Shown: piece by piece, positions 59,347 through 63,756 of the stretch
Position numbering within the stretch: position 1 is the stretch's first letter
How the letters are laid out: each line of letters starts with the position of its first letter
Origin: a virus
Lineage: Duplodnaviria; Caudoviricetes
IMG/VR virus record: IMGVR_UViG_3300014091_000001
Location: 1 to 64,000 of that record
Direction: 5' to 3' (one strand)
Length of the DNA stretch: 64,000 nt
Position numbers and translations under genes: made by a program
The notes under the pieces: model-generated
What the model was told of the DNA's origin: nothing
The model's database searches: none
Seen by the model: the letters and a program-made list of their open reading frames with translations, nothing else

Positions 59347-59667
59347 TTACCTCCGCTTATGCCGCAGGCCATAATCGGTACGGGCAGGGCCGGTAAATAC
59401 GGCATCCACCAGCGTAACGACGCCTGAATGTTCACGCCGGTAGTAATCCAGCAGCTTACGGGCGGCTTTTTCAGTTAACTGATCGACATACAGGCATGCA
59501 GCCTGGGGATCGGGATAGTCTTTTTCGAGTGTCAGGAGGGGAACAATGTCGGAAAGGGTACTGACGCCAAAGACGACAACTGGCATACCGCGCTTATAGC
59601 CTGCGGCAAACGAGATTTTGTGGTCGTCAATAACAAACTGCTTGTGGGTCAGAATCGAACCGGACAT
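59347..59667 (-). CDS. Hypothetical protein
   Basis: SD GGAGG; operator-like motif upstream at 59725. Confidence 0.65.
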   Translation of the reverse strand: MSGSILTHKQFVIDDHKISFAAGYKRGMPVVVFGVSTLSDIVPLLTLEKDYPDPQAACLYVDQLTEKAARKLLDYYRREHSGVVTLVDAVFTGPARTDYGLRHKRR

Positions 59668-59744
59668 TGTGCCTCCTGTCCGGTTAATTCTGACCTAATG
59701 ATAAAGCGTATTCAAATAAAAAAGCCTTAGAATGTCGCTTATTA

Positions 59745-60773
59745 TCACTTTTCCATAATGTCAGACATAGCACTGTTTTTGTTTTTCAGCTTGCGCAGGT
59801 ATCGCATGACTGTCTCAGGCTTTGCCCAAGTTCCTTCGTGCATGATTTGCGTCATGCTAACGTCACGCTCCGCCATATCCTGCGCGGCGCCGACACGGGC
59901 ACTATGCCCGGACCACATAACGTAACGACCTTTATTGGCCGGTTCATCGGATTTCCCCAACAAACGCCATGTATCCTGGAAGATTTTTTCCATTGCAGGT
60001 GTGGACATTGGCTTTTCTGTAACGGTCACGGTGCCATTTTTACGCACAGCAGAAAAAACAACGGCGTCTGGATGTTCGTAAAGCCCCGAAACTTTCAGCC
60101 ACTGACGTAAAACCCGGCTTGCTGGCAAGCTGAGGTGCTTAATAACACCCGCTGCCGTGAGTACCGTTTTCGTATGGGTTAGCTCCAGTATTACCCGTTC
60201 GTCATTAACGCTCACGTCTTTAACCCGGATACGTGCAATCTCCTGAATCCGTAGCAACGTGTTATACGCCACAAAGAGGAAAGCGCGGTTGCGCAGGTCA
60301 GCCATACGATCAGACTGCCCAAGGATGTGGCTCGCGATCTGCAAGTCAGTGAACCGGAACGGTACGGCCTGGCCGGTTTTCTCTCCACCCATTACAGAGC
60401 GGCGGCGAATCTTTTTAAGCGCCAGCAGCACTTCATTGCTGTTCTTCAGATCCGGCAGGCCTGATATGCGCATCAGCATATTCAGCATGGCGTAGTGCGT
60501 GTCTATCGAGCTGGACGCCGCGCCGGTTTCATGGAGGTGGATAAAGTAAGCGCGGGCGTGAGACGGGACCACCGGCAACGCGGGAATTTTCTGTTGCGCG
60601 CACCAGGCGGACCACGACCGGATAACCACCATCAACTTTTTGAACGTGTTTTCAGAATAGGCGTCGCGATCCGCCATGAAAGCACGTAGATTTCTTTCCA
60701 CCTCGCCGGGGGTCAGGCCAGTAAGTGCAGGCAGGCCAGAATCACCTTTTCCAGATACTGTCATTTCATCCAT
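59745..60773 (-). CDS. cre: Cre-family tyrosine recombinase, Dre-like
   Basis: 342 aa; LRNRAFLFVAYNTLLR (R), HTKT (K), GHSARVGAA (H..R), GTW (W), VMRY (Y); many segments shared with recalled D6 Dre. Confidence 0.93.
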   Translation of the reverse strand: MDEMTVSGKGDSGLPALTGLTPGEVERNLRAFMADRDAYSENTFKKLMVVIRSWSAWCAQQKIPALPVVPSHARAYFIHLHETGAASSSIDTHYAMLNMLMRISGLPDLKNSNEVLLALKKIRRRSVMGGEKTGQAVPFRFTDLQIASHILGQSDRMADLRNRAFLFVAYNTLLRIQEIARIRVKDVSVNDERVILELTHTKTVLTAAGVIKHLSLPASRVLRQWLKVSGLYEHPDAVVFSAVRKNGTVTVTEKPMSTPAMEKIFQDTWRLLGKSDEPANKGRYVMWSGHSARVGAAQDMAERDVSMTQIMHEGTWAKPETVMRYLRKLKNKNSAMSDIMEK

Positions 60774-60889
60774 AAATCACCAAAATTCTAAGGAATGTTG
60801 CGCTACGCGAATTCTGAGTAAAACTCAGTGGTGTAACGCTCGATTTTTCATGCAGCATAAAAATGATCAATTTCACTTGATAATACCCC

Positions 60890-60923
60890 ATAACTTTAGA
60901 TAATGCCTATTATCTAAACCTAA
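60890..60923. other. lox/rox-like 34-bp recombination site
   Basis: ATAACTTTAGATA-ATGCCTAT-TATCTAAACCTAA, 117 bp upstream of the recombinase; 27/32 identical to recalled rox. Confidence 0.85.
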
Positions 60924-61170
60924 TGATTTGGGTAAATTGTCTGAAAAGAGAGTGCGGTTAATTGACGAGAAATTCTAAAGGCTTTTGAATATACATCTAT
61001 CAAGCATAAGATGTACCATAGCTGTAAGCGCAGACTGACGAAAAAACAATCGCCTGACGCCTTACCAGACACACACGAGTACCGGTGTCACGTTGGCTTA
61101 CAAAGAATCTTACTTAAAATTCTAAGGGTATTGTAAGTTACGCTACACCAGAAAACGAAGGAGCGCCGCA

Positions 61171-62205
61171 ATGCCGGTATTTGACGATGCAATGTTTGAA
61201 CATCAGTACAAGGAGTTTTTAAAAGTAAAAACTGACTGGCTTGAGCTGGTGGGTTCGCTTGCCGTACATCACAGCAAAAATTCCCGGGATGAGTTAATTC
61301 GCCCGGTCGCATTTTCTAACGATGAAAGTGACTTTTATCGTGCTATTGATTTACATATTAGATGGAAAAAATTTGCTGAAATGGCCGATGAGCGACGCAA
61401 GAAAAAAAGCATTGCGATCCCAGCGTCCTTATATTCACCCGTTCCGTTAATGGTTATTGAACCAGAACGGTTTGGGTTGACGACGTTTAATGCCACCACG
61501 ACGACGACTAATACGCGTGAGGACATTTTGCAGCGTTATGAAAAGCAAAAATTAAAACTAAAGAAAATCCCATACACAGCTGACAGTATTAAAGCCCTGG
61601 ATGAGGAAGCGGCATGGTTTGCCGCCCTGCCAGAAGGTAGGCTTTTCCGTTGCCGCACCAGCGGCTATGAGGACACGATCGCAGAGATAATTTTTAAAGG
61701 AGAGCAAGAGTCCCATAAAACCCGTTACGGGGTTCATGGCGTTTTTGTTTATCATCCTAACTGGACTAAAGAAAACATTATTATTCAGGAAGGTCCATCC
61801 ATTGAATATTCGGGAAAGTACGATTTAATTTCACCCGTGAAATGCTCACTTTTCCCTGGCAGCAAACTTTATGATATCGAAGATATAAATATTGCGGACA
61901 AAAAGGCGCAACAAAGAGCGATTGTGGACCAGGCAATTCATGCCCGACGCTATAACTTCGAACGCCGGGCTAAATCACGCATGATCCGCGCTGAAACTCA
62001 GGAAAAGGCTGAAATTGTTGCAGGTCAGATCGAACAAGACCGGCAGAACATGATGAGACTCAACGAAATGGACCTGCAACTACTGGATAGAAAATTTGCG
62101 TCCGGTAATCTGAATGTGCTCAAAATGACTGAATTACGCGAAATGTACGGCGAAAAGCAGTCCCGCAGAGGAAAGAAATTCAAAGAGCTGGCTCAACGCG
62201 GCTAA
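61171..62205 (+). CDS. c1: C1-like primary immunity repressor
   Basis: Between lox and pacB, converging on pacB as in P1; Y.EF, RPV, LY.PVP, FR.R..GY..T, GVF, KY..I.P..C..FP..KLY.I.DI motifs; extra C-terminal extension. Confidence 0.75.
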   Translation: MPVFDDAMFEHQYKEFLKVKTDWLELVGSLAVHHSKNSRDELIRPVAFSNDESDFYRAIDLHIRWKKFAEMADERRKKKSIAIPASLYSPVPLMVIEPERFGLTTFNATTTTTNTREDILQRYEKQKLKLKKIPYTADSIKALDEEAAWFAALPEGRLFRCRTSGYEDTIAEIIFKGEQESHKTRYGVHGVFVYHPNWTKENIIIQEGPSIEYSGKYDLISPVKCSLFPGSKLYDIEDINIADKKAQQRAIVDQAIHARRYNFERRAKSRMIRAETQEKAEIVAGQIEQDRQNMMRLNEMDLQLLDRKFASGNLNVLKMTELREMYGEKQSRRGKKFKELAQRG

Positions 62206-62235: not shown

Positions 62236-63756
62236 TCAGTCCACCAGACTATCAAACTGTTCCAGCTCCGCCAGCGCGTCCGCGCGCTTCTCACCCATTT
62301 CAAGACCGGTTTCTTCATCAGCTGGCCGGTATGGCATTATCATTTGAAAGCAGTAGGTGTCCCAGCGGTCAGGAGACTTAATATTCAGCTTGGATCGCAT
62401 GTGCTCCTTTTTCATCATCGCTACGCGACCGTCTTCCGCTAACGCCCATGGTATTTTCGATGCCTGTTCAGCAGTTTTCTTTGAATTGTCCAGGCGCATT
62501 CTGCCACCCTGCACAGCGTCGCGCGCTGCGAAGTTCGCCCAGGCGCGCTGGTTGACGAATCGCTCTTTATCCTGGCGAGAGAAAAGTTTCTTGGGGTTCC
62601 CCCAACGGATGCGAACTACGTTAATACCGCGACGCTCCAGCTGATCTGCAGTGGCAGAACCTACGCCGTCAGCATCGACGCCAATTGTGATGTTAGGGAA
62701 TTTTGAGGGGACGCATTCGTTAGCAATGTAGTCGCCAAACTCAGTGGGGTTCATATTCCCGGGCATCTCAATGACACCGAAGGGGACGACACGCCGCTTG
62801 TCACGGTATCCGCTTACGCGAGAAATGTTCAGTACCGATTTATCGCGTCCGTTACCCACGTCAGCTGTAGCCACCCAGCCCCAGCCTTTTTCGACGTATA
62901 CGCGGCGGCGCTGAGCGCGCTCACAGGCATCCAGCCCCAGCAGAAATCCGTTAATCTCGCTGGGGAACTGGCCTAACACCTTGACCATGTACTCAACGGA
63001 ATCACGGCCGCCATACTCGGCTAACTTCATAATGATAAAGTCGAGGGTTACGAACGGCGACTCTTCGGAGTTCAGAACAATGCTTGTCCAGATACCGTTA
63101 GGGTTACTCGGTGTTTTAGCGAGAGAATGATGCGAGTCGTAAAAATAGCCACTCGGCCGCGTCGGCTGCGAGAGCATCAGCATCCTGTTATCTTTCTCGG
63201 TCAGAGCGCCGGTCATTATGCCGATCGCTTTGTCGCTAATACCCGATGCCTCATCGAGAATCAGTAACAGATGTTTGGCATGCTCACCCGCTAACGATTC
63301 TTCATTACCCAGGCGATAACCCTTGCAGAGCACTTCCCATATGCCTTTACGGGTCCGCTCATAAAACATGGTATCCGTTAGGACAAAATGGTTTTGCAAC
63401 CATGGATGCCGTTTTATTGCGTTGGTCCAGAACTGTTTGACGTATTTGAAAACGCCGGTTTTTACCTGCGAAATTTTGTTAGCGACAATTACAACGCGCG
63501 CATCAGGATACAGGATGATAAAGATCATCAGCATCATGGCCGTCAGGGAGGATTTCCCGGTACCGTGGCCGGATGTGACCGTAGTCCTGCTACCTATTTG
63601 CTGTACTGATTCAAGTATCTCGTCCTGTTGCCAGCTTGGCTCCATACCAAACAGCTCGACAACGGCCAAACCCCAATCATGGCGATACCGGATCACCATA
63701 TCGCGCCAGCGCGGGTCTTTCGTTACGCACTTTAGCTTCTTTTTGCCGGATGCCAT
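62236..63756 (-). CDS. pacB: Terminase large subunit PacB
   Basis: SGHGTGKS Walker A, LILDEA, DVG.G.DKS, SPDRWD. Confidence 0.95.
   Translation of the reverse strand: MASGKKKLKCVTKDPRWRDMVIRYRHDWGLAVVELFGMEPSWQQDEILESVQQIGSRTTVTSGHGTGKSSLTAMMLMIFIILYPDARVVIVANKISQVKTGVFKYVKQFWTNAIKRHPWLQNHFVLTDTMFYERTRKGIWEVLCKGYRLGNEESLAGEHAKHLLLILDEASGISDKAIGIMTGALTEKDNRMLMLSQPTRPSGYFYDSHHSLAKTPSNPNGIWTSIVLNSEESPFVTLDFIIMKLAEYGGRDSVEYMVKVLGQFPSEINGFLLGLDACERAQRRRVYVEKGWGWVATADVGNGRDKSVLNISRVSGYRDKRRVVPFGVIEMPGNMNPTEFGDYIANECVPSKFPNITIGVDADGVGSATADQLERRGINVVRIRWGNPKKLFSRQDKERFVNQRAWANFAARDAVQGGRMRLDNSKKTAEQASKIPWALAEDGRVAMMKKEHMRSKLNIKSPDRWDTYCFQMIMPYRPADEETGLEMGEKRADALAELEQFDSLVD

Follow-up and report, generated by a model that had tools for sequence, protein, structure and literature searches.

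Introduction

Cre-type simple recombinases, a class taken here to comprise Cre, Dre, Panto, Vika, VCre and the YR series, are homologous to Cre over their full length, including the N-terminal helical DNA-binding domain, and are 300-400 aa long. As members of the tyrosine recombinase superfamily, they carry the R-K-H-R-(H/W)-Y set in a C-terminal domain. Their targets are composed of two inverted arms of about 13 bp around an 8-bp spacer, located at most 1 kb from the recombinase gene. Multiplexed genome engineering makes use of Cre-type recombinases with distinct targets, and data on how these proteins read DNA come with every natural enzyme/site pair.

The systems closest to the locus described here are Dre/rox of Escherichia phage D6, Panto/pox of Pantoea sp. 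aB and Cre/loxP of phage P1. Dre/rox was reportedly described by Sauer and McDermott in 2004. Panto is encoded by a phage-plasmid of about 90 kb, its rox-like site has natural arm asymmetry, and each of the enzymes Panto and Dre, which share 52% identity, also recombines the site of the other (Karimova et al. 2016, PMC4957104). According to the same study, K43, R259 and G263 of Cre separate the recognition of loxP from that of rox, and Dre and Panto carry R43, P259 and K263 (Karimova et al. 2016, PMC4957104). Cre with R259P and G263K, in which K43 is retained, recombines rox, and Cre with both changes loses its activity on loxP; for recombination between two sites, matching spacers are needed (Karimova et al. 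2016). In the Cre-loxP structure, residue 43 is near arm positions 8-10. Dre recombines not only rox but also pox, lox8 (with two mismatches in each half-site) and lox11 (four mismatches). This cross-reaction is not reciprocal: YR8 acts on its own site alone, though Dre recombines lox8. A survey reports about 500 predicted recombinase/site pairs, 17 of them tested (YR1-YR17), under a limit of at most two asymmetric arm positions (Jelicic et al. 2023, NAR 51:5285).

In this work, we describe a Cre/Dre-type recombinase gene and an adjoining rox-like site in a viral genome. As judged from the sequence, the putative pair is the counterpart of Cre/loxP of P1 and Dre/rox of D6. An initial annotation of this DNA had proposed a Dre-like, Cre-family enzyme next to its own rox-like site and, in addition, a specificity separate from Dre/rox. 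The first part agrees with our results, and the second is weighed below.

The phage-plasmid and the recombinase locus

The window, i.e., the whole stretch of 64,000 nucleotides that was analysed, comprises bases 1-64000 of an 86.4-kb IMG/VR record rated 87% complete. The element belongs to the D6-like phage-plasmids of Enterobacteriaceae. Of 185 ORFs (those of at least 80 aa, overlapping shadow ORFs counted), 89 match the phage-plasmid D6 (genome MF356679) in collinear order, with amino-acid identities of 23-77%. Together with this collinearity, pacA and pacB, c1, a lox-type site and a recombinase gene occur in the order that marks D6-like (P1-related) phage-plasmids. Locally, pacB, the c1-like gene, the site and the recombinase are followed by small ORFs and a dUTPase-like gene, as in D6, and plasmids of 84-95 kb from Leclercia, Citrobacter, Pantoea and E. 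coli are annotated with the same gene order. The features of the locus are as follows.

59745-60773, minus strand: Cre/Dre-type tyrosine site-specific recombinase gene, 342 aa (intact ORF, Pfam and Cre/Dre alignments)
60774-60889, minus strand: intergenic leader from site to recombinase, with GATC at 60865-60868
60890-60923, no strand assigned: putative 34-bp lox/rox-like target site (palindrome, rox match, homologous sites in relatives)
60890-60902, read on the plus strand: gene-proximal arm ATAACTTTAGATA
60903-60910, read on the plus strand: spacer ATGCCTAT
60911-60923, read on the plus strand: distal arm TATCTAAACCTAA, reverse complement TTAGGTTTAGATA
61171-62205, plus strand: homologue of D6 orf1 (annotated as a C1-like prophage repressor), 344 aa, on the far side of the site
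62236-63756, minus strand: PacB-like large terminase subunit, 74% identical to D6 orf2 (pacB) over 502 aa

The product of 61171-62205 aligns with D6 bases 242-1231 at 31% identity over 336 aa (tblastn, E 5e-32) and gave no match in Pfam; a homologue is found at the corresponding place in plasmids of Leclercia, Citrobacter, Pantoea and E. coli. The PacB-like counterpart in Leclercia plasmids is annotated as a terminase. The C1-like protein is far more diverged from D6 (31%) than the adjacent PacB (74%), which is to be expected if immunity specificity differs between D6-like phage-plasmids.

The recombinase and its relatives

The 342-aa product matches the Phage_integrase family of Pfam (PF00589, E 3e-20, 73 bits with the cut-off at 27.1). 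Residues 13-341 align nearly end to end with residues 10-340 of Cre in solved structures (E 1.2e-80), so that homology includes the N-terminal helical DNA-binding domain, and the length lies within the 300-400 aa of Cre-type simple recombinases. All six catalytic residues (R173, K201, H289, R292, W315 and Y324 in Cre numbering) are present in the alignment, in the C-terminal domain and in the order typical of the tyrosine recombinase superfamily. The start codon lines up with the starts of the Dre, Leclercia and UViG homologues. The earlier description of an intact Cre-family recombinase with all catalytic residues thus holds.

The protein shares 49.7% identity with Dre over its full length, 43-44% with Cre and about 57% with close relatives of Panto from Pantoea agglomerans plasmids. 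The latter stand in for Panto itself, whose printed sequence agrees with them at the N-terminus, and on this comparison the Panto type has the highest identity among the characterised types. A BLASTP comparison had been proposed as a check on whether the enzyme was an already characterised one, and it is identical to none of Cre (43%), Dre (50%) and Panto (about 57%). Its nearest relatives are encoded by the Leclercia adecarboxylata plasmids pE1_003 (82%) and pZ96-1_2 (81%) and the viral contig UViG 3300013999 (79%), followed by an Enterobacter hormaechei protein (78%) and Citrobacter plasmid proteins (about 70-73%). Three relatives at 75-81% identity (P0003, P0004 from Enterobacter hormaechei, and P0005) are known as proteins alone. 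The Leclercia and the Citrobacter freundii/portucalensis plasmids resemble the element in both lineage and synteny, and their homologues are annotated only as 'tyrosine-type recombinase/integrase'.

In a quick maximum-likelihood tree, the window protein forms a group with its Leclercia and UViG counterparts (SH-aLRT 96), which Citrobacter joins (99); the lineage stands next to the clades of Dre type and Panto type, and Cre is more distant. As placed by this quick tree, the window, Leclercia and Citrobacter recombinases are a third lineage beside Dre and Panto. Among 401 sampled genomes of Enterobacteriaceae species, 19 carry a Cre-type homologue, and only that of Citrobacter NCU1 exceeds 50% identity.

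A megablast search of positions 59600-61200 against phage and plasmid records returned no match, because even the nearest relatives share only about 72% DNA identity with the window. Against Leclercia and UViG 3300013999, identity is about 72% on both sides of the site, with no jump across it that would point to recombination between phages. The 50% identity to Dre, in turn, falls within the genome-wide range of 23-77%, which indicates vertical divergence of the whole element and not a special co-evolution of this enzyme.

The putative target site

A 13-8-13 site upstream of the recombinase gene had been noted before, and it is present at 60890-60923; the upstream position stands, while the distance given for it, 117 bp, is corrected to 116 nt between start codon and site. 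Complementarity is perfect in a 10-4-10 arrangement (TTTAGATAAT / GCCT / ATTATCTAAA, 60895-60918). In the 13-8-13 reading, 10 of the 13 arm positions match: the inner eight are perfectly complementary, and all three mismatches are found among the five outermost. The inner palindrome is present a single time in the window and was absent from all 100 shuffles, and the site is found once in the whole 86,391-bp record, in which neither a second copy nor terminal repeats were detected. In its two inverted arms, its 8-bp spacer and its proximity to the gene, the site has the composition of a Cre-type target.

When compared with rox, in the form given by the pEVO-rox primers of Karimova et al. 2016 (supplement), the site is identical at 27 of 32 positions and has the same 14-4-14 / 13-8-13 layout. 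The differences are at positions 9, 18, 24, 29 and 30; a position-by-position recount gave the same five that had been reported, including the symmetric pair A>G at 9 and T>C at 24. Relative to rox, the window site has G for A at position 10 of each arm, one changed spacer base, and two to three asymmetric bases in the outer distal arm. The locus is otherwise like that of D6 in gene order and genome collinearity, and the enzyme is like Dre in its 342 aa, its catalytic residues, P259 and K263. It differs in being only 50% identical, in carrying K43/K44 in place of R43/D44, and in the location of the site, which is 116 nt from the start codon here and 151-152 nt in D6-type elements.

Panto/pox shares with the window pair the Cre-type enzyme, the phage-plasmid setting, the rox-like site and the natural arm asymmetry. 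Its enzyme belongs to another clade and has R43/D44, not K43/K44, and the arms of pox are GAAACTTTA(A/T)ATA, with another spacer. Cre/loxP is similar in fold family, catalytic residues, the 13-8-13 site upstream and GATC in the leader or regulatory region. It differs in the protein (43% identity, R259/G263 in Cre against P259/K263) and at arm positions 8-10, which read CGT in loxP and TAG in the window. The outer arm ATAACTT of the window site is also that of loxP.

Natural sites across the family

Upstream of every homologue, the best repeat of 13-8-13 form was extracted, and about 80 natural pairs were compared. The sites are written below on the recombinase strand, in the order distal arm, spacer, proximal arm.

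Window: TTAGGTTTAGATA, ATAGGCAT, TATCTAAAGTTAT
Leclercia: ATTACTATAGATA, ATAGGCAT, TATCTATACCTAT
UViG 3300013999: GTTACTATAGATA, ATAGGCAT, TATCTATAGCTAT
Citrobacter: ATAACTATAGATA, ATGGG(A/G)GT, TATATAAAGTTAC
Panto-type: GAAACTTTAAATA, various spacers, TATATAAAGTTTC
D6-type: (A/C)TAACTTTAAATA, ATTGGCAT, TATTTAAAGTTAG

In plasmids of Leclercia, Citrobacter, Pantoea and E. coli, and in most of the 72 viral contigs fetched, the gene has a homologous site upstream of it, with a distance of 116 to about 230 nt to the start or match start that varies by clade; in a few divergent contigs of this set (L083, L087), the search gave no convincing site. The presence of a homologous site at the same place in nearly every element supports the site as the target of the enzyme.

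The spacer ATAGGCAT is identical in the window, Leclercia and UViG 3300013999, with flanks of only about 72% DNA identity, which points to selection. G at arm position 10 is likewise shared with Leclercia, but the inner arm there is CTATAGATA, whereas the window has CTTTAGATA in the proximal and GTTTAGATA in the distal arm, and the outer arms differ too. Throughout the window/Leclercia subclade, the outer four to five bases are asymmetric and the inner 8-9 bp perfectly symmetric. This pattern indicates tolerance of outer-arm variation, a trait of the lineage and not decay. The outer right arm of the window site had been regarded as broken; the asymmetry is real, but it belongs to the subclade and is not damage. 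The three asymmetric outer positions of the distal arm could nevertheless weaken binding.

Among the relatives fetched, A, G and T all occur at arm position 10, and the two arms of a site often do not agree there: about 25 Panto-type loci have A/T, Citrobacter and L070 have G/T, and several D6-type loci have G/A. G in both arms was seen in the window, Leclercia and UViG 3300013999. Among the loci with unlike arms, L011, L012 and L023-L037 (Panto-type) have A distal and T proximal to the recombinase gene, and L009 and L017-L021 (Citrobacter-type) have G distal and T proximal. This asymmetry of distal A or G and proximal T, found in about 30 Panto- and Citrobacter-type loci, may reflect shared ancestry or a second function of the proximal arm. 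The proximal TATATAAAG of these loci resembles a -10 element pointing at the gene.

Natural rox is also variable. In 7 of the 31 contigs whose recombinase is 89-100% identical to Dre, a distal arm CTAACTTTAGATA is combined with the normal rox proximal arm, so that the site reads CTAACTTTAGATA, ATTGGCAT, TATTTAAAGTTAG (L044, L045, L046, L049, L053, L062 and L067); an eighth locus, L065, has the arm CTAACTTTAGATA with a different spacer. The proteins beside such a single TTTAGATA arm are 100% (L053, L062) or 99.4-99.7% (L045, L046, L049) identical to Dre. Other natural rox sites vary in the spacer, with ATGGGGAT in L068 and ATTAGCAT in L069. The G-bearing arms and spacer variants beside Dre-type proteins show natural rox to be polymorphic. 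Across the roughly 80 natural pairs, free variation is seen at position 10 and in the outer arm positions, even beside Dre-identical proteins, and it helps to judge which site differences are likely to matter.

Proposed function of the pair

The gene and site very probably constitute a functional, cofactor-independent Cre-type recombinase with its cognate 34-bp site, acting as a module for circularisation and dimer resolution, with arm recognition of the rox/pox type and cross-reaction with rox-type arms. By homology with Cre/loxP, two monomers would bind the two arms of each site, and two sites would synapse as a tetramer. The tyrosines equivalent to Y324 would then cleave, with strand exchange taking place within the 8-bp spacer ATGCCTAT. 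Terminally redundant DNA carrying two copies of the site, as would result from headful packaging (pacA and pacB are present), could be circularised after infection, and dimers of the plasmid prophage could be resolved, letting the copies segregate. Biologically, such a pair would be ordinary, namely the circularisation and dimer-resolution module expected of a D6-like phage-plasmid.

Recognition of the arms and orthogonality

The rox/pox group has T-A-A or T-A-T at arm positions 8-10 and enzymes with R43, P259 and K263. The window has T-A-G, and its recombinase has K43, P259 and K263, the same combination as the rox-active Cre R259P+G263K. With an inner arm of the form TTTA(A/G/T)ATA and with P259/K263, cross-reaction with rox-type arms is expected, and Dre, at least, would be expected to act on the window site, which leaves no clean orthogonal specificity. 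The one-base spacer difference (ATGCCTAT against ATGCCAAT in rox) would hinder recombination between the window site and rox, whatever the enzyme.

In the alignment, K43/K44 is found throughout the window lineage in place of the R43/D44 of Dre and Panto. No other feature could fit a shifted readout near positions 8-10, and this one is confounded with phylogeny; residues 43 and 44 face the part of the arm that holds the G, so preference may be shifted. It is conceivable, though we lean against it, that the lineage is a third rox/pox-type one with a changed inner-arm readout, in which the enzyme with K43/K44 would prefer G at position 10 and recombine its own site but neither rox nor pox, as reported for YR8, the inner 8-9 bp would suffice, and Dre would possibly still act on the site. 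If true, multiplexed genome engineering would gain an additional recombinase, and the reading of arm positions 9-10 by residues 43 and 44 would have a natural test case. One-way selectivity, in which the window enzyme would be inactive on rox, is a comparably tentative prospect; the published cross-reactions, being non-reciprocal, allow that the window enzyme might not act on rox.

It is rather unlikely that the arm asymmetries are functional, either as unequal arm affinities that order strand exchange or because the site doubles as a promoter/operator of the divergent recombinase and c1-like genes. The distal A/proximal T state of the Panto-type loci and the G/T state of Citrobacter would fit such a role, but the loci are closely related, so the common asymmetry may be inherited, and the window site itself is symmetric at position 10. 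Moreover, Panto efficiently recombined a pox made symmetric (Karimova et al. 2016, PMC4957104). As for a promoter, GATAAT in both inner arms provides the -10 hexamers of promoter-like matches that point outward both ways (60877-60936), the best with 10/12 on the plus strand towards the c1-like gene (60877-60904) and another with 9/12 on the minus strand towards the recombinase. However, the scan did not exceed chance (4 matches against 2.3 +/- 1.4 in shuffles), and at this level we make no promoter claim for the site.

The initial annotation had read the A>G/T>C pair as the mark of an enzyme and a site that co-evolved a new arm specificity, with G at position 10 of both arms, and that may be orthogonal to Dre/rox and Cre/loxP. 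The symmetric G of the window and its two nearest relatives (Leclercia and UViG 3300013999), the lineage-wide K43/K44 and the high specificity of some natural enzymes with near-rox sites, e.g., YR8, speak in favour of this proposal. Most of the evidence presented above goes the other way. The same G occurs natively in one arm beside proteins 99-100% identical to Dre, which is hard to reconcile with a G that needs a co-evolved enzyme. Position 10 varies among relatives and between the arms of Panto-type, Citrobacter and L070 sites; P259/K263 is the state common to Dre and Panto. Dre tolerates up to four half-site mismatches and cross-reacts with Panto at 52% identity. We therefore regard a co-evolved specificity as improbable, and mutual orthogonality with Dre/rox is, on the same sequence comparisons, equally hard to expect. 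Orthogonality to Cre/loxP is plausible, since P259 and K263 abolish the loxP activity of Cre; if so, it would be inherited from the rox/pox type, as a property of that whole group.

Cre accepts a loxP site with changes in the five outermost bases of one arm (lox66/lox71), and this counts against the notion that the window site is decaying. That the site has drifted in its outer distal arm or is not the true target, with a recombinase inactive or acting elsewhere, is very improbable: although the arms are complementary at only 10 of 13 positions and, in the 2023 survey, about half of the predicted pairs tested failed, the ORF is intact with all catalytic residues, the outer asymmetry is common to the whole subclade around perfectly symmetric inner arms, the 86.4-kb record holds no other candidate site, and the spacer is conserved in three elements amid diverged flanks. 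The preferred reading thus remains a working recombinase and site of the rox/pox type.

Novelty and significance

With three asymmetric positions, the window site would lie outside the limit of two set in the 2023 survey; a Citrobacter-type site would come within it if read with 12-bp arms. A full-text literature search with the core strings of the site returned no relevant paper, and neither did a search for D6-like Leclercia elements and reuse of the YR names. On present evidence, and with the roughly 500 survey pairs outside the comparison, the pair is real and not yet described, and it is an ordinary addition to a well-surveyed family. It adds a lineage without prior characterisation in the literature searched, and its value as a tool is modest.

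Further observations at the locus and in related plasmids

A GATC-bearing GTGATCATTTT in the leader is common to the window, UViG 3300013999 (L004) and Citrobacter NCU1 and is absent from D6 in the alignment. The annotation of P1 places Dam sites in the cre regulatory region, which the leader GATC at 60865-60868 recalls; a regulatory role for it is something we only infer.

In the Leclercia plasmid pE1_003 (L007:1-2541), a gene for a Tn3-family (Tn5403-like) transposase abuts a 'large terminase' ORF of 753 nt, compared with 1521 nt for the same ORF in the sister Leclercia plasmid, which suggests that pacB of pE1_003 is disrupted by a transposon insertion.
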